The notes under the pieces: model-generated | What the model saw: the letters and a program-made list of their open reading frames with translations, nothing else | What the model was told of the DNA's origin: nothing | Database searches by the model: none | Assembly (NCBI GenBank): GCA_029259175.1 | Contig: JAPDJH010000020.1 | Location: forward strand, 1-12,409 | Reading direction: 5' to 3' | Source of the DNA: Hadesarchaea archaeon | GTDB taxonomy: Archaea > Hadarchaeota > Hadarchaeia > Hadarchaeales > Hadarchaeaceae | Length of the DNA stretch: 12,409 nt | Position numbers and translations under genes: made by a program | Shown: positions 473 to 12,409 of the stretch, piece after piece | Layout: each line of letters begins with the position of its first letter | Numbering within the stretch: the first letter of the stretch is position 1

Positions 473-1228
473 ATGGAATTCCTAAGGCCGAAAACAGTGG
501 AAGAGGCCGTGGAGCTGCTCGACCACCCGCACGCTCTCCCCGTAGCCGGAGGAACGGCTTTTCCCGGAAAGCCCAACGCTGAGCGTCTGGTCGATCTAAC
601 GTCTCTGGAGCTGAACTATGTGGAGGAGCGGCCCGATGGCTTCCACGTTGGGGCAACCACCACCATCGCCGAGCTGGAGCGCTCCCCCGTGGCTGAAATG
701 GCGGGCGGCTACATCCGGCAGGCCTGTGAATTTCTGGCCGACACTCCGCTTCGAAACATGATCACCGTTGGAGGAAACATCGCGTGCGGCCACCTCTGGG
801 CCCACCTGCCGCCCGTGCTGATGACGCTCGGAGCGCGAACCATCATAGCCGGAAAGCGAAAACGAGAACTCACCGTGTACGAGGTGGTCTCCGCGGGGCT
901 CCAGCGCGGGGAACTCATCCAGGAGGTGATCATCCCAAAACTCGGGGGACGCGGCGTGTTCAAAAAGTTCGCCCTCACGCGCACCGACTACGCGGCCGTG
1001 AGCGTGGCCGTTTACTGGGACGAGCTCGGGCGTCGTGTGGCGGTGGGAGGACTCGTCCGGCCACAACGGCTCGGCGATCTCGAAGGGCAAATCGACATCA
1101 CGCCCGAGCTCCTCGACAGAGCGGTGGACGAGCTGAATCCCGTGCCCCATCCGCACTTCGATCCCGAGTACCGGAAACACGTGCTCAAAGTGTTGCTCCA
1201 GCGGGCCATCGCGGAGGTGGAGCACTGA
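473..1228 (+). CDS. Xanthine dehydrogenase-family FAD-binding (medium) subunit, CoxM/YgfM-like
   Basis: 251 aa with N-terminal RPKTVEEA, AGGT, IGA-like VGATTT and RNMITVGGNI motifs. It has an RBS and is first in a coupled FAD/FeS/Mo operon. Confidence 0.92.
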   Translation: MEFLRPKTVEEAVELLDHPHALPVAGGTAFPGKPNAERLVDLTSLELNYVEERPDGFHVGATTTIAELERSPVAEMAGGYIRQACEFLADTPLRNMITVGGNIACGHLWAHLPPVLMTLGARTIIAGKRKRELTVYEVVSAGLQRGELIQEVIIPKLGGRGVFKKFALTRTDYAAVSVAVYWDELGRRVAVGGLVRPQRLGDLEGQIDITPELLDRAVDELNPVPHPHFDPEYRKHVLKVLLQRAIAEVEH

Positions 1229-1698
1229 TGGAGATTTGCTGCAAGATCAATGGGGAGGAACGCAAGCTGTGCTTTGAGCCCCACGAGCGTCTGCTACACG
1301 TGTTGCGCCGCCACGGCTATTACGAGGTGAAAGATGGGTGCAGCGAGGGGCACTGCGGCGTGTGCACGGTGCTCGTCGACGGCAAACCGGTTAAATCCTG
1401 TCTCATGTTTGCCGCTCAGGCCGAGGGAAAAGAAATCACCACCGCGCGGGGGCTCGGAAGCCCGGAGTCTCCGCACCCCATCCAGCAGGCCTTCGCAGAC
1501 GAGGGGGCGGTGCAATGCGGCTTCTGCACACCCGCCATGATCCTTTGCGCTCACCACCTCCTCCAGCGTGTGCCCGATCCAAGCGATAAAGAAATCCGCC
1601 GCGCCCTAGACGGCGTGCTGTGTCGCTGTACCGGCTATCAAAAAATCATAAAAGCCGTAAAAACGGCTGCTCAGCGCATTGGGGGTGAGGCCAAGTGA
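1228..1698 (+). CDS. Xanthine dehydrogenase-family 2x[2Fe-2S] (small) subunit, CoxS-like
   Basis: The true start is ATG 1228, in a TGATG overlap and preceded by GGAGGTGG. The 156-aa product has GCSEGHCGVCTVLVDG...SC, QCGFCTP and LCRCTGY motifs. Confidence 0.95.
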   Translation: MEICCKINGEERKLCFEPHERLLHVLRRHGYYEVKDGCSEGHCGVCTVLVDGKPVKSCLMFAAQAEGKEITTARGLGSPESPHPIQQAFADEGAVQCGFCTPAMILCAHHLLQRVPDPSDKEIRRALDGVLCRCTGYQKIIKAVKTAAQRIGGEAK

Positions 1699-4025
1699 AG
1701 GACTTCAAAGTCGTTGGAAAGCCCGTGCGCAAGATAGACGCTATACCGCTCGCCACCGGTCAGCCGCTCTTCACCGACGATGTGGACATGCCGGGGATGC
1801 TGCACGCACGCATATTGTGGTCGCCCTACGCACACGCTAGGATAAAGGATATCGACATTTCAGAGGCGGAGCGTCTCCCGGGTGTTCACGCCGTCCTGTG
1901 TTACAAAAACGTGCCGCGCGTTATGCACACGACAGCCGGACAGGCGTGGCCCGAGCCCTCCCCCTATGACACCGCGATGTTCGATCGAAAGGTTCGCTAT
2001 GTCGGGGATCGTGTCGCTGCGGTGGCCGCCGAAACGCCCGAGATCGCAGAGCGGGCTCTACAGCTCATCCGCGTGGAGTACGAGCCTCTGCCGGCGGTCT
2101 TGGATCCCGAAGAGGCGATAAAGGAAGGCGCGCCCGTGATCCACGACGAGCCCGACTGCAAGTACGTTCTGCCCATCCGCTGGGATCCGAAGCGCAACAT
2201 CGCTGCTCACGTGGAGCTCGAAACGGGAGATTTCGAGCGCGGCCTGAGAGAGGCGGAGGTAGTGGTGGAGGGGAAGTTCAGAACACATCAGGAGCAGCAC
2301 TGCTGTCTCGAGACCCACTCCTGCATCGCTTACGTCGACCCCGCCGGGCGGCTGGTGATCCGCACCAGCACCCAAGTGCCCTTTCACGTCAGGCGGATAG
2401 TGGCCCAGTGTCTCCAGATTCCGGAGCGCATGGTCCGCGTGGTCAAGCCGCGGATAGGCGGCGGGTTTGGAGGAAAGCAGAGCATGATAATCGAGGACGT
2501 CTGTGCCATGCTGGCATGGAGAACCAAGCGCCCCGTGCGCTTGGTGTACACCCGCCGCGAAGAGTTCATGTCTGCTCACGTCCGGCACGCCATGGTGTTG
2601 TGGGGCAAAATCGGGGCCAAGCGTGACGGCAGGCTGACCGCGATAGAACTCCGGGTGCTGAGCAATGCCGGTGCGTACGGCGCGCACGGGATGACGGTCG
2701 TTAACAACACCTGTGCGAAAACCCTCCCGCTCTTCCGCTGTGAGAACATCAGGTGGGTTGCCGATGTCGCGTACACCAACACCGTTCCCGGAGGGGCATA
2801 CCGTGGGTACGGCGTTACTCAGGGAATCTTTCCGATGGCGATCCTCATGGATGAACTTGCCGAACGCTTGGGAATGGATCCGGTAGACTTCTGGAAGCTC
2901 AACACGGTTCGTGAGGGCGATACCCACCCGATCTTTGAAAAGCTGGGTGAGGTCGGCAAGGGGGTAGCCATGCGGATCGAGAGCTGTTCGCTGCCCGAGT
3001 GCATAGACCGCGCGGCAGAGGTCTTCGAGTGGAAGAAGAAGCGCGCCGAGTATTCCAAGCCCCAGTCCGGCCCGGTGAGGCGGGGAGTTGGAATGGTGTG
3101 TGTAGCCCAGGGGGCGACCGTCCCCCTGATCGACATGGCTTCGGCGTCTGCCAAGATGAACGACGATGGTTCCTTCAACCTACTCATCGGGGCGACCGAT
3201 CTCGGGACGGGGGCAGACACTGTTCTCTCCCAGATCTTCGCGGAGACGCTGGACATACCGGTTGAAGACGTGATAGTGTACGCCGCGGACACCGATTTCA
3301 CGCCCTTCGACAAGGGAGCCTACGCGTCCAGCACCACCTACTGCTCGGGCATGGCGGTGCTCAAGACCGCCGAGGCGATAAAGCGCCAGATCCTCAAGGT
3401 CGCCTCCGAGATGCTCGGCGAGCCCGAGGAGAACCTCCGGGTCAGACAGAAGGGAGTGGAGTCCAAGCAGAGCGGGAAGCGGGTCGAGTTCCACGAGATC
3501 GCCAAGCACTCGATGTACGTGCGAAAACAGTTCCAGATCGCGGCCACCGAGTCGTTTGCGAGCCCCCTGCCGCCGCAGAGCTATTCCGCGCACTTCGTGG
3601 AGGTGGAAGTGGATGTGGAGACGGGGGAGGTGAGGGTGCCGCTCTACGTGGTGGCGGTCGACTGCGGGACTGCGATAAACCCGAAGCTGGCGGAGGGGCA
3701 GGCAGAGGGTGCGGTGCTCAACGGGATAAGCCATGCCCTGTACGAGCAATACGTGTGGGACGAGAGAGGCCGGATGCTGAACCCCAGCTTCGGCAGCTAC
3801 AGAATTGCGACCACTCTGGACGCGCCGGAGATCAAGACGATTCTGGTTCCGAGCTATGAGCCGTCGGGGCCGTATGGGGCAAAGTCGATTGGAGAGGTGT
3901 GTGTGAACGGGCCGCTCCCGGCGATTTCTAACGCAATCTATCATGCGGTCGGAATCAGGCTCAGAGAATCGCCCTTCACTCCGGATCGAGTCCTGCGCGC
4001 GCTCAAGGGAAAATCGAAGAGCTAG
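1695..4025 (+). CDS. Xanthine dehydrogenase-family molybdopterin-binding (large) subunit, XdhD-like
   Basis: 776 aa with a GTG start overlapping the upstream TGA. Motifs are STQVPF, GGGFGGKQ, AYRGYG, DLGTG, FDKGAYASSTT, GQAEG and GAKSIGE (catalytic Glu). Confidence 0.95.
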   Translation: MKDFKVVGKPVRKIDAIPLATGQPLFTDDVDMPGMLHARILWSPYAHARIKDIDISEAERLPGVHAVLCYKNVPRVMHTTAGQAWPEPSPYDTAMFDRKVRYVGDRVAAVAAETPEIAERALQLIRVEYEPLPAVLDPEEAIKEGAPVIHDEPDCKYVLPIRWDPKRNIAAHVELETGDFERGLREAEVVVEGKFRTHQEQHCCLETHSCIAYVDPAGRLVIRTSTQVPFHVRRIVAQCLQIPERMVRVVKPRIGGGFGGKQSMIIEDVCAMLAWRTKRPVRLVYTRREEFMSAHVRHAMVLWGKIGAKRDGRLTAIELRVLSNAGAYGAHGMTVVNNTCAKTLPLFRCENIRWVADVAYTNTVPGGAYRGYGVTQGIFPMAILMDELAERLGMDPVDFWKLNTVREGDTHPIFEKLGEVGKGVAMRIESCSLPECIDRAAEVFEWKKKRAEYSKPQSGPVRRGVGMVCVAQGATVPLIDMASASAKMNDDGSFNLLIGATDLGTGADTVLSQIFAETLDIPVEDVIVYAADTDFTPFDKGAYASSTTYCSGMAVLKTAEAIKRQILKVASEMLGEPEENLRVRQKGVESKQSGKRVEFHEIAKHSMYVRKQFQIAATESFASPLPPQSYSAHFVEVEVDVETGEVRVPLYVVAVDCGTAINPKLAEGQAEGAVLNGISHALYEQYVWDERGRMLNPSFGSYRIATTLDAPEIKTILVPSYEPSGPYGAKSIGEVCVNGPLPAISNAIYHAVGIRLRESPFTPDRVLRALKGKSKS

Positions 4026-4045
4026 GAAGACTCGGGATAAAGAAG

Positions 4046-4330
4046 GACTACGATAAATCGGAGAGTTCAAGCGAACGAATTTTTCAAGGAAAACTGCCGA
4101 ACTCGCATGCCCCCAAGACTACGATAAATCGTAGAGTTGACGAGGCGGACATTGGACTACGATGAATCGTAGTTGGTGCCGATTCTATGCGTTCTCCCTT
4201 TGCGATTGTGATGTTGCGGAGCCCTACGATAAATCGTAGTGTGTCGATCTCGAGCCGCGGGGACTACGATAAATCGTAGAGTTCCATCAACAAGCCCGCC
4301 AGCATCCAGACTACGATAAATCGTAGACTT
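4046..4330. repeat. Array of six co-oriented palindromic repeats, consensus RGACTACGATAAATCGTAGAGTT, with unique linkers
   Basis: The 16-nt core CTACGAT-(A/G)A-ATCGTAG starts at 4048 (one mismatch), 4119, 4157 (GA loop), 4224, 4264 and 4311. The array lies between two convergent stop codons. Confidence 0.95.
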
Positions 4331-4345
4331 CCAAGCCAAAAATCA

Positions 4346-6286
4346 TTAGGCCCGCGTCCCGCCGCTGGGATAGCGATCCAGCGACCAGTAAGGCGGTCCG
4401 TCCCAGTCCGGATACGGCATCCCGCGCTCGAGTTCGTCGGCCACCCGCTTCAGCCCAAGGCTTTCCAGCTTCGCTCTCGTCGGAGCTGCAGTGTTCCAGT
4501 CCCAGCCGCGAACCTGATAGTACTTGGAGAGAAGCTCCTCGTGCTTTCGGATTTCTTCCTCCGCCTCCTTCGTCCCCTTCAGGTTTGGTCTCAGCACCAA
4601 GCGATCGTCCTTGCGCTTTATGCCCTGCCGCACCAGAAACGCCCGCTCCACCGCATATATCCGCTCCACCGCGTCCGTGATATCCTGCGACTTAAACTCA
4701 ACACCCGTCAGAGCCGTCAAGAGCTTGGCGACCCCGTCCCAGAGCGGATAGCGGTGGATGAGCGGGACCGCAGCAGCCCAGTTGTTCACGCTTCCCTTGC
4801 AACGGCCGATCGAGTCGGCGAGAGTGCAGGCGTTCTCGGAGAGCACCAGAGCCAAGACCGGATCATCCGGGATGTAACCCTTGGCCTTCAACTCCGGGAA
4901 GATCTGGGGGTCGTTCTCGCCAAAGGCCCAGCTGCGCCCCCGCAGGTGATCCGCCCCCCGAGTCGAAGTCGCGTGGGCGAGTGTGAACACTCCCACGGGA
5001 TAGTCGGAAGGACCGCGGCACGTTCCCTTCACGTGATAACAGTAATCCATGGCCTTTGGCCCGTACCGCTTCGCAACAGCATACATCCCCTCCGCCAGCA
5101 AGCTGGCGAACTTGCCCTCTCGCAGCGCGATTCGGTGAATGAGCTCGATCTGATCATCGGTGGCTTCCCATTCGAGCGAGACGCCGTCCGTATCACGCTC
5201 GGAAATTATACCGCGATGATAGAGCTCCTTGGCGAACGCGATCACGTTGCCCAGAGGAATTGTACACATACCGTACTTGTCCGCGAGGTTGCCCATCACC
5301 ATTATCGCTATCGGATCCGTTATCCCGCAGTTGGTTCCGCAGCAGAAGATCGTCTCGTACTCCAGCGCGACCCCGACCTCATCCTTGTACTTGCCCTCCG
5401 GAATGCGATACACATCGCGACAGCTCACAACACATCCATAACACGCCGCGCGCTTTAACTCGTAGCGCTTCCATCCCTTGGGAGTGATGTCGGGCGGCAC
5501 ATCCTTCTCGGACAAGTATTTGGAGAAGTAGCGGTAGCCGGGCCACCACCGGATGACCCCTAGGTGGGTGCCGTACTCGGCGATCTCGCGCTGGGTCGGG
5601 TCGCGCAGAAAGAACTGGTTGTCCTCCATTGCAAGCCTGCGGAACTCCTCCTCGTTAGCCGCCTCTACCCGCTTGGTTCCGCGGACTGTGATGGCTTTCA
5701 GCCGCTTCGAACCGAGCACGGCGCCGCTTCCGCGAGCTGCCGTGAAGTGGCGGTCGAACACCGTGCAGGCAAAACGAACAAGATTTTCACCGGCTTGGCC
5801 AATAGAGCACACCCAGAAGTCCTTCCCGTGGATCTCCTTGAGCATGTCGGTGGTTTCCCAGGTGGTGCGGCCCCAGAGGTCAGAAGCATCGCGGAGTTCC
5901 ACATCGTCGTCATCGATGAGCAGGTACACGGGTTTGCTCGCGCGCCCAGTCACGATTATCTGGTCGTAGCCCGCGCGCTTCATGAAGGTCGGGAAGAATC
6001 CGCCAGCATTGCCATCTCCCAAGATGTATGTGAGTGGGGAGAGGGTGCTCACCTCTATACGGCCAGAACTCGTGAGCATGGTTCCGGTGAATGGGCCGAC
6101 AGCAAGACACAGCACATTCTCCGGGGAAAGGGGATCAATTCCTGGCTTGATCTCCTCAAAAAGGACTTTGGAGTTCAAGCCGCGGCCACCTAGGTACTCT
6201 TTTGCCACTTTCAGATCCAGTGGCTGCTTGACGACTTTCTCGCGGCTCAGATCCACTCGCAAGACTGTTCCAGCCCAGCCTTTCAT
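4346..6286 (-). CDS. Aldehyde:ferredoxin oxidoreductase family (tungstopterin, [4Fe-4S])
   Basis: 646 aa with GWAGTVLRVDLS, LGGRGL, SIGQAGEN, GAVLGSKRLKAI, CYGCVVSC (CxxCxxxC), EYET, RGADH, DSIGRC and YYQVRGWD motifs. Confidence 0.95.
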   Translation of the reverse strand: MKGWAGTVLRVDLSREKVVKQPLDLKVAKEYLGGRGLNSKVLFEEIKPGIDPLSPENVLCLAVGPFTGTMLTSSGRIEVSTLSPLTYILGDGNAGGFFPTFMKRAGYDQIIVTGRASKPVYLLIDDDDVELRDASDLWGRTTWETTDMLKEIHGKDFWVCSIGQAGENLVRFACTVFDRHFTAARGSGAVLGSKRLKAITVRGTKRVEAANEEEFRRLAMEDNQFFLRDPTQREIAEYGTHLGVIRWWPGYRYFSKYLSEKDVPPDITPKGWKRYELKRAACYGCVVSCRDVYRIPEGKYKDEVGVALEYETIFCCGTNCGITDPIAIMVMGNLADKYGMCTIPLGNVIAFAKELYHRGIISERDTDGVSLEWEATDDQIELIHRIALREGKFASLLAEGMYAVAKRYGPKAMDYCYHVKGTCRGPSDYPVGVFTLAHATSTRGADHLRGRSWAFGENDPQIFPELKAKGYIPDDPVLALVLSENACTLADSIGRCKGSVNNWAAAVPLIHRYPLWDGVAKLLTALTGVEFKSQDITDAVERIYAVERAFLVRQGIKRKDDRLVLRPNLKGTKEAEEEIRKHEELLSKYYQVRGWDWNTAAPTRAKLESLGLKRVADELERGMPYPDWDGPPYWSLDRYPSGGTRA

Positions 6287-7066: not shown

Positions 7067-7406
7067 TCAACGTGCAAGCCGGCACAAGAACTTCGGCACG
7101 TCTTCTTTCTCCAGCACCTTCACCCCGCGCGGATACCGCCGATGGGGTTTTCCAGCCTTGATCTCGACTTTTAAGTTGCCCGCAACACAGTCTATCTCGA
7201 GTTTGTTCCGCCAATAAAACACTTCGCCAAACTGATGCAAGAGATGCTCCTGCACCACCCACTCGTAAAGCAAACACGTGTTCGGCTCCAGTCCGAAAAT
7301 CGATGAATACGTCCGAGCTACAAAAGGATCTCATGAAAATCTTCTTTTCTTTCCTGAAGTTTACTCTCTGGCCAGCTTTGTGATATGCCACGCCAACAAT
7401 TTGTAT
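7067..7406 (-). pseudogene. C-terminal remnant of an AAA+ ATPase with DUF4143 (PD-(D/E)xK-like) domain, frameshifted
   Basis: IQIVGVAYHKAGQRVNFRKEKKIFMR (7406-7329) joins, after a shift at about 7330, DPFVARTYSSIFGLEPNTCLLYEWVVQEHL...FYWRNKLEIDCV...VEIKAG. This gives the KIFxxDP, LYExxV, YWR..EID and EIK motifs. An in-frame TAA lies at 7409-7407 and there is no ATPase domain. Confidence 0.75.
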
Positions 7407-12282: not shown

Positions 12283-12409
12283 GATGCTGTTCAAATAACG
12301 CTTTAGGTCTCTCCTCATAGAACGATTGGGGGCTAGGACCCGAGGGGATGGGAAACAACTCCAAGGAGGTGATGCTCTATGGAATCGTTCGTTCCCCTCG
12401 GGCTACCTG
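12283..12409 (+). mobile_element. 5' end of the same multicopy element (probable insertion sequence), right copy, reading outward
   Basis: Inverted copy of 1-126 beginning GATGCTGTTCAAATAA. RBS GGAGGTG (12365-12371) precedes ATG 12379, giving MESFVPLGLP, truncated at the window end. Confidence 0.65.

Follow-up and report, generated by a model that had tools for sequence, protein, structure and literature searches.

In the genome of a Hadesarchaea archaeon (assembly GCA_029259175.1, here G000; 23 contigs, 1.306 Mb, 91% complete), an array of six palindromes separates the convergent genes for a xanthine dehydrogenase/CO dehydrogenase-family subunit (XDH) and an aldehyde:ferredoxin oxidoreductase (AOR). 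The array lies on contig JAPDJH010000020.1 (contig C14), the whole of which, 12,409 nt, is called the window. With a probability of roughly 0.6, the array is an orphan set of recognition sites, that is, the gene-less copy of a selfish or mobile module featuring a small Cas2/VapD-like gene. Such a module would be made of a gene encoding ~70–90 aa and of copies of a gene-specific palindrome of 14–18 bp, located at the start of the gene, at its stop and further out. The palindromes would be the recognition sites of the encoded and presumably dimeric protein, which would contact them most likely as duplex DNA. The module would insert into intergenic space, leaving arrays devoid of a gene, and array units may be gained, lost and exchanged through recombination at identical palindromes. 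The window array is probably a young relic, since its cognate gene is a recently broken pseudogene located on contig C7.

The array and its paralogues

Six dyads of 16 nt (CTACGAT-AA-ATCGTAG) mark the forward strand of the window at 4048–4326, and the asymmetric centre is oriented alike in all six. The dyads, called F1 below, have a typical 7-2-7 geometry, and the window copies conform to the consensus CTACGAT[A/G]AATCG[T/G]AG; four of the six are exact copies of the dyad, while U1 and U3 carry the changes listed in Table 1. By chance, 0.01 copies are expected, as estimated from 200 dinucleotide shuffles, and 12 matches over the two strands were reached in none of the shuffles. Core-to-core distances measure 71, 38, 67, 40 and 47 nt, and the linkers, accordingly, 55, 22, 51, 24 and 31 nt. 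No spacing is divisible by 3, and the palindromes accordingly stay in phase in no reading frame. Copies, orientation, spacings and lack of phase had all been reported in a preliminary description of the window, and were confirmed by a motif scan. The same description regarded the flanks as partly conserved, which is true to a degree: RGA precedes five of the six copies, and AGTT follows three of them, ACTT one more. The possible decayed seventh copy, which the description placed at about 4029–4041, did not turn up in a scan allowing as many as 3 substitutions; it would need indels, and is unsupported. The flanking convergent genes, read as Mo- and W-enzyme genes in the preliminary description, are by their Pfam domains those of the XDH-family subunit (+) and of AOR (−).

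F1 palindromes are present in 14 copies (≤1 substitution) in G000. All are intergenic, and are found in three clusters only: the six in the window, five at C1:41363–41569, and three plus a half copy at C7:6771–6875, on the opposite strand. Within each array, all copies are oriented one way, as judged by the asymmetric centre. Divergent genes flank the two other arrays, namely those for a DeoC-type aldolase and EPSP synthase on C1, and those for Trm5/TYW2 and an aspartate/ornithine carbamoyltransferase on C7; both arrays lie upstream of TATA-like elements, read from the sequence, of the flanking genes. Four solitary sites in G000, with 2–3 mismatches to F1, look like chance matches. The motif was found in none of three genomes of the same genus, and 57 further relatives contain it only as 3 single one-mismatch matches, which we take as chance. 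Pairs of F1 motifs 20–50 nt apart were found neither in 185,579 species genomes nor in IMG/VR; in JGI metagenomes such a pair marks one contig, which derives from a strain of the same organism.

Over 219 nt, window units U2–U6 are colinear with, and 75% identical to, units U1–U5 of the C1 array (E 5e-31). The linkers, reported as unique in the preliminary description, are indeed mutually unrelated within the window array, but are not unique in the genome, as four of the five are matched by colinear paralogues on C1. In the comparison of the five units, palindromes are identical at 78/80 positions, the four linkers at 85/135 (63%; Fisher p 4e-10). The near-identity of palindromes set in drifting linkers indicates that the 16-mer has been kept constant by selection or homogenisation. 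The first C1 linker and the first C7 linker are 93% identical over 60 nt, hairpins included. As read off the alignments, all F1 arrays are consistent with a single order of linker types, F-A-C-B-D-E, and differ in the units which are missing. Outside the arrays, window linkers have no match in the rest of the genome at E < 0.01; fragments of linkers F and B, the two longest, have no match in viral contigs, where exact 24-nt patterns were searched.

The F1 arrays are insertions, and vary between strains. In G001, a genome of the same genus, the 3' ends of the XDH and AOR orthologues overlap, sharing 11 nt (L021, open reading frames (ORFs) 613..2550, + and 2540..4048, −), and in another Hadesarchaea metagenome-assembled genome (L036) the two are separated by 6 nt. 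The 320 nt at 4026–4345 are therefore specific to this lineage. The C-termini of XDH and AOR in the window resemble those of G001. The spacer between the Trm5 and carbamoyltransferase genes measures 77 nt in G001 versus ~550–600 nt in G000, and that between the aldolase and EPSP synthase genes ~170 nt in genome G002 versus 329 nt in G000. Of the other palindrome families of G000, described below, the F2 module (~690 nt) is likewise missing where its orthologous site lies in G001; at the F7 locus, one flank only was matched in sister genomes. The preliminary description had suggested a comparison of strains, and unit content is seen to differ at two loci. A metagenome contig (L020) represents a strain 97.4% identical at the C1 locus, in which the first unit is one that G000 holds only on C7 (68 nt, 95.6%). 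At the window locus, a contig from a DNA run of another study (X8) links 4142 to 4261 via 12 other letters, so two units are missing from that strain. The X8 strain has a T at 4061, which makes its U1 palindrome perfect.

The small gene tied to the palindromes

The C7 array and the carbamoyltransferase gene are some 390 nt apart, and this interval matches, in a tblastx comparison within the genome, a stretch inside the F2 array. The F2 stretch is an intact ORF of 96 aa, P0001 (L053:4056–4346, −; F2-type protein encoded at C2:15058–15345), which has a conserved core of ~70 aa and palindromes on both sides. Its C7 counterpart (C7:6863–7182, −) is a gene of ~74 aa, now a pseudogene, interrupted by just one in-frame stop and one frameshift; a recent loss would be in keeping with F1 palindromes that are still nearly perfect. 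The frame of the pseudogene enters the first F1 palindrome (C7 U1), which encodes the last codons and the stop (..DYDKS*). Ten relatives were retrieved by an exhaustive phmmer search, and P0009 (74 aa, intact) matches the C7 pseudogene and ends with the same five residues. The small ORFs beside the C7 array have no Pfam match. A local profile identified additional members in G000: one within the F7 array (79 aa; L054:3847–4086, −), the C-terminus of which is encoded by one palindrome copy, one within the F3 array on C16 (L058:6432–6755, −), surrounded by palindromes, and one at C8. Intact paralogues sit, in all, within three other palindrome families (F2, F7, F3), and 4 of the 5 family ORFs in G000 touch an array. 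The canonical cas2 found near the genome's CRISPR array obtains only a marginal score with the family profile. None of this could be seen in the preliminary description, because the gene is encoded on other contigs.

The family profile matches 31 of 66 Hadarchaeota genomes, G000 included. Palindromes were counted up to a few hundred nt away from the gene. At 29 loci from other genomes, a locus-specific perfect palindrome is found in at least three copies in 10 instances and in two copies in 4, and the copy number rises up to nine when up to two mismatches are allowed. One layout recurs among the modules, and includes one copy at the gene start, one on or just past the stop, and a further run on one side, with copies ~30–100 nt apart. 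A perfect palindrome occurs within −45..+40 nt of the stop in 13/30 family genes versus 88/1321 long control ORFs (p 4e-8), and in several modules the palindrome overlaps the start or the stop codon of the gene. One subfamily, found in several genera, features a conserved upstream partner gene of 107 aa, which has no Pfam match or known domain. These pairs have a single palindrome between the genes, and as many as six degenerate copies in the 130 nt past the stop; the layout resembles that of a toxin-antitoxin pair. CTACG-type palindromes mark the genomes of two relatives, G029 (14 copies) and G043 (24 copies). The latter hosts two arrays devoid of a gene, made of 11 and 7 copies spaced 31–151 nt apart, which makes the window array one of a class.

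The similarity of the linked protein to Cas2/VapD is weak to borderline. In a large protein collection the family is represented by 31 clusters, all made of hypothetical proteins, and none has a Pfam domain. The relative at L098 is the sole one passing the CRISPR_Cas2 cut-off of Pfam (24.7 bits versus 23.8); the relative at L113 remains under it (23.2 bits), the F7 gene scores 19.6 bits (E 0.001), and E values for the relatives other than L098 range from 8e-5 to 1e-3. The F3 gene matches the Cas2-like PaaX_M domain (E 5e-4). Cas2 models in PADLOC match five of six scanned Cas2-like proteins, and P0009 is matched with E 0.013. Pfam and NCBIfam have no match for the F1/F2 subfamily, and P0001, compared with PDB sequences, with NCBIfam and in a word-indexed protein search, retrieved nothing outside its own cluster. 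Searched with the family profile, PDB sequences gave 3exc (E 0.004) and SSO1404 (E 1.3), and Foldseek ranked VapD and Cas2 chains at the top, with E from 1.7e-3. An aspartate (D7) at the end of strand 1 is invariant in two alignments, A1 (9 sequences) and A2 (7 sequences), at what we take to be the catalytic position in VapD and Cas2; the title of entry 6zi1 in the Foldseek listing names a D7N mutant. No member of the LSGWHY subfamily turned up in viral contigs or, at E 1e-5, in 38 genomes of another archaeal phylum, the latter scanned without a positive control.

Alternative explanations and known systems

Several observations weigh against the origin of the array from a selfish Cas2/VapD-like module. 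No target-site duplication or terminal inverted repeat is demonstrable, the array ends being the palindromes themselves, and the 6-nt spacer found in L036, despite the G001-like C-termini, makes a target duplication at the XDH/AOR junction not demonstrable. A transposition intermediate was not seen, and ordinary recombination could also explain the three F1 arrays. As many as 15 of the 29 loci from other genomes have no repeated palindrome, the family copy at C8 has no array, and the F4 family has no gene in the assembled part. F6 palindromes enclose a gene of 98 aa of the HTH_23 type (L061:3666–3962, −), not Cas2-like, upstream of ribonucleotide reductase; the layout of F6 matches that of the other families despite the different kind of small protein. 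Since G000 is 91% complete, a missing enzyme could be encoded in its unassembled part. Finally, contigs from RNA libraries cover 4008–4182 and 4242–4707 with 100% identity.

The RNA-library contigs bear on the main rival, itself rather unlikely, which places the same module at the RNA level. The array would be part of a transcript, forming the 3' tail of either the XDH or the AOR operon, and its hairpins would titrate or feed a VapD-like endoribonuclease, functioning as a protein sponge or as a type-III-antitoxin-like RNA; orphan arrays would be anti-addiction decoys. VapD is an endoribonuclease, as are some Cas2 proteins, and Makarova and colleagues (PMC3506569) reported Cas2 homologues without antitoxin on selfish elements, beside resolvases or relaxases. 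Resolvases or relaxases are not found among the recurrent neighbours of the family loci. Palindromes placed over the start or the stop codon would suit a control of the gene's own mRNA, and the subfamily with the 107-aa partner gene has a toxin-antitoxin-like layout. The RNA-library contigs are no proof of transcription, as DNA may occur in such libraries, and the parts of the array which they leave uncovered say nothing.

The composition of the palindromes favors DNA as the target. In 18 modules, stem mismatches compatible with G.U pairing number 24 on the sense strand of the gene and 21 on the antisense strand, alongside 13 other mismatches and 54 perfect copies; the sense-strand excess expected for RNA hairpins is not seen. 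In a hand count of 19 families, palindrome centres are self-complementary in 10, mixed in 3 and not self-complementary in 6, figures to be taken as a hint only, the families being related. About half of the families are thus perfect through the would-be loop, a feature needless for an RNA hairpin. The lack of a G.U strand bias and the self-complementary centres fit better with a symmetric dimer sitting on duplex DNA than with a hairpin formed by one strand. In addition, the gene in the F2 and F7 modules has a TATA-like element of its own, and the promoter there would not transcribe most of the copies, which are placed upstream of it. When the 320 nt are folded as RNA, on both strands, distant copies pair with one another instead of forming local hairpins in a row, a result which is non-discriminating between the two targets. 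Sites for a dimeric DNA-binding protein were among the options raised in the preliminary description, and of these come closest to the present evidence; the associated protein is small and Cas2/VapD-like, and its dimeric state is presumed.

An extension of the module to its mode of growth is improbable, but can be spelled out. A stand-alone Cas2-like protein would cut its own palindrome, and repair of the staggered cut would duplicate the palindrome around captured filler DNA. Repeat-filler-repeat arrays would in this way grow without Cas1 or a length ruler. Together, gene and arrays would form an archaeal mobile DNA of a new class, comparable to a stage on the way to CRISPR arrays as its living analogue or its relic.

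Less credible still is that a transcription factor of the host uses the palindromes as clustered operators, or that they form an insulator or terminator serving the neighbouring metabolic genes. The typical 7-2-7 dyad is what a regulator site would look like, and two of the three F1 arrays lie just upstream of divergent core promoters; the window array, in contrast, lies between two 3' ends. The neighbours of the three arrays (XDH/AOR, aromatic amino-acid genes, Trm5/OTCase) are functionally unrelated, and the arrays are en-bloc copies of one another. A host regulator is also at odds with the absence of the motif from the three same-genus genomes and its 3 single one-mismatch occurrences in the 57 other relatives.

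It is very doubtful that the array is a CRISPR-like repeat-spacer array with linkers processed to guide RNAs, as the preliminary description had also envisaged. Dyad-symmetric repeats, variable and non-repeated inserts, strain-variable units and a Cas2-family-like protein encoded beside arrays are shared with CRISPR and Cas1-Cas2 systems. Linkers, however, vary in length from 22 to 55 nt, are common to several arrays, between which they drift at 63% identity, and match neither other parts of the genome nor, as fragments of F and B, the scanned viral contigs. The repeat core measures 14–18 bp, and cas1, a leader and an effector are absent at these loci; the real CRISPR array of the genome is found elsewhere, and has a different repeat of 37 nt.

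Least probable of all is a classical family of repetitive extragenic palindromes (REPs) or BIMEs (bacterial interspersed mosaic elements), where hairpins are mobilised in trans by a HUH Y1 transposase, either RAYT or the TnpA of IS200/IS605. Much of the REP-like behaviour proposed in the preliminary description does hold, as the arrays are intergenic recurrent mosaics, absent from sister species and variable between strains, and one lies between convergent genes. Three families (F1, F2, F6) end in GTAG, a tag reported for REPs in PMC3733652, and Y1_Tnp genes are found in 13 of 60 related genomes. The enzyme is where the model fails. PF01797 has 0 matches in G000, within the 91% assembled, and in the 3 same-genus genomes, whereas the positive control matched 6 of 14 known genomes; no Y1_Tnp/RAYT gene flanked by the motif, as looked for in these four genomes, was found, and the gene linked to the motif belongs to another family. 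GTAG is half of a symmetric CTAC...GTAG stem, and is missing in F3, F4 and F7. Copies are just 14, in 3 clusters in 1.3 Mb, and have a single orientation throughout, whereas BIMEs alternate, according to PMC2817692.

A selfish module with a Cas2/VapD-like gene has features in common with several known systems. As reported in PMC3733652, bacterial REP/BIME-RAYT systems (REPtrons) similarly form strain-variable intergenic mosaics of palindromes, with several families per genome and a placement between convergent genes, and include a cognate gene flanked by its own palindromes along with many gene-less copies elsewhere. The present modules differ as they reside in an archaeal host, feature long irregular linkers, 14 copies and one orientation, whereas REPs often exceed 100 copies per genome, and encode a ~74-aa Cas2/VapD-like protein, a putative agent of mobility, rather than a HUH Y1 enzyme. 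VapXD shares a small VapD-like protein with an N-terminal Asp and, in one subfamily, an upstream partner gene; most modules described here have no partner. In ToxIN, a type III toxin-antitoxin system, a repeat array adjoins a nuclease gene. The association of repeats with a putative nuclease gene is similar, but ToxIN repeats are fixed-length tandem units located upstream, whereas the palindromes are irregularly spaced on both sides of a gene encoding a different protein fold. Pneumococcal BOX elements and miniature inverted-repeat transposable elements are composite intergenic elements with a variable number of modules and no gene of their own. The arrays described here have no terminal inverted repeats beyond the palindrome and no demonstrable target duplication, and each family has a specific small gene. 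In plasmid centromere and iteron arrays, such as ParR-parC and omega, a small dimeric protein binds clustered short sites around its gene. The palindromes of the modules, in contrast, reside in chromosomal intergenic spacers at several loci, with no adjacent partition NTPase or replication gene.

Listings and abstracts in the literature mention no Cas2-like or VapD genes tied to palindrome arrays, no REP/RAYT in archaea and no REP-like elements in Hadarchaeota; to this extent, the Cas2-like gene-palindrome module is apparently undescribed. A REP-like logic with a cognate gene, known in bacteria with a HUH transposase, would operate in a phylum of archaea, the protein being another one and much smaller. 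The ancestral role of Cas2 and VapD is still debated. Should the protein recognise its palindrome, the modules would be a simple model, found in nature, for three processes: the recognition of a specific sequence by a Cas2-fold protein, the rise of repeat arrays with variable inserts, and the shaping of very small genomes by selfish DNA. G000 holds at least 11 palindrome arrays, and no palindrome family of such kind was found in 400 kb of the same-genus genome G003. Strain-variable arrays are usable as markers for uncultured Hadarchaeota.

Other palindrome families and repeats of the genome

Further palindrome families were found by a k-mer and hairpin census of G000, and are listed in Table 1 along with the features of the window. 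F2, F3, F4, F6 and F7 are all located between housekeeping genes. F2 has genes for a B3_4-domain protein and a methylpurine-DNA glycosylase on its two sides, and F7 is flanked by a DUF7343 winged-helix gene and a phosphoglycerate mutase gene. Two F3 copies on C16, which have similar flanks, bracket an AAA_14/DUF4143 ATPase gene, and one F3 cluster adjoins a gene encoding a 106-aa ArsR-type helix-turn-helix protein. A separate similarity involves the same region of C16: window positions 7130–7267 are 70% identical over 138 nt to C16:4880–5017, within the AAA_14/DUF4143 ATPase gene region.

Table 1. Features of the window, palindrome families of G000 and gene pairs of relatives. Positions without prefix refer to the window.
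Feature	Position	Strand	Basis or remark
XDH, xanthine dehydrogenase/CO dehydrogenase-family molybdopterin-binding subunit	1695..4025	+	Pfam MoCoBD_1, MoCoBD_2, Ald_Xan_dh_C
Whole lineage-specific insert, holds the array	4026..4345	+	stop-to-stop gap of the two convergent genes
Palindrome U1, T>G at position 14, one stem pair broken	4048..4063	+	motif scan
Linker F, 55 nt, paralogue not found	4064..4118	+	linker comparison
Palindrome U2, exact	4119..4134	+	motif scan
Linker A', 22 nt, weakly paralogous to C1 linker 1 (14/24 aligned columns)	4135..4156	+	
Palindrome U3, central A>G	4157..4172	+	motif scan
Linker B, 51 nt, paralogue C1:41418-41465 (37/51)	4173..4223	+	
Palindrome U4, exact	4224..4239	+	motif scan
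Linker D, 24 nt, weakly paralogous to C1 linker 3 (14/25)	4240..4263	+	
Palindrome U5, exact	4264..4279	+	motif scan
Linker E, 31 nt, weakly paralogous to C1 linker 4 (20/35)	4280..4310	+	
Palindrome U6, exact; homology to the C1 array stops 2-5 nt beyond	4311..4326	+	
AOR, aldehyde:ferredoxin oxidoreductase	4346..6286	-	Pfam AFOR_N, AFOR_C
F2, CTACGAACCTTCGTAG, six copies	C2:14989-15583 (L053:3990-4600 = G000 C2:14989-15599)		k-mer/hairpin census
F3, TGTCCCATATGGGACA, 16 copies, three clusters and one single	L058:4657-6940 (G000 C16), L055:3905-4160, L056:3631-3782		
F4, TCTAGACACGTGTCTAGA, two contig-end arrays	L059:20-370 and L060:4129-4471 (G000 C5, C9)		83% identity over 403 nt
F6, CTACACACCCCTGTGTAG, six copies	L061:3637-4375 (G000 C3:183136-183874)		
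F7, GACAAAGGTTTGTC, six copies	L054:3847-4300 (G000 C2:26846-27299)		
Pair of 107-aa gene and Cas2-like gene	L113:1402-1996	-	
Pair of 107-aa gene and Cas2-like gene	L098:1142-1749	+	
Pair of 107-aa gene and Cas2-like gene	L109:1149-1764	+	

An Rfam scan of positions 3800–4600 gave 5 matches, every one far under the gathering score. C/D-box-like words noticed in linker B were dropped, as, by eye, they are not kept in the C1 paralogue.

Additional repeats mark the genome. A CRISPR array (37-nt repeat, period of ~74, at least 19 copies) is found at C1:214332–215700, and a canonical cas2-like ORF (C1:219878–220279) ~4 kb off; both are unrelated in sequence to the palindrome families. A dispersed repeat of ~100 nt, with core CCGGGAACGGGGC, is present in 7–8 copies (C2:184275, C3:48108, C3:59123, C3:67094, C4:30383, C4:115570, C6:25972, C10:33748). 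A palindrome of 18 nt, TTGTTATAWWTATAACAA, is dispersed in 6 copies, mostly single (C2:97595, C6:64083, C6:71107, C6:73047, C8:27761, C8:27796), and its sites look more like ordinary regulator sites than like arrays. The window starts and terminates with the same 126 nt in inverted orientation (1–126 and 12283–12408). This stretch, which also terminates contigs C1, C3 and C16, is a repeat or an assembly-graph overlap which breaks the assembly.

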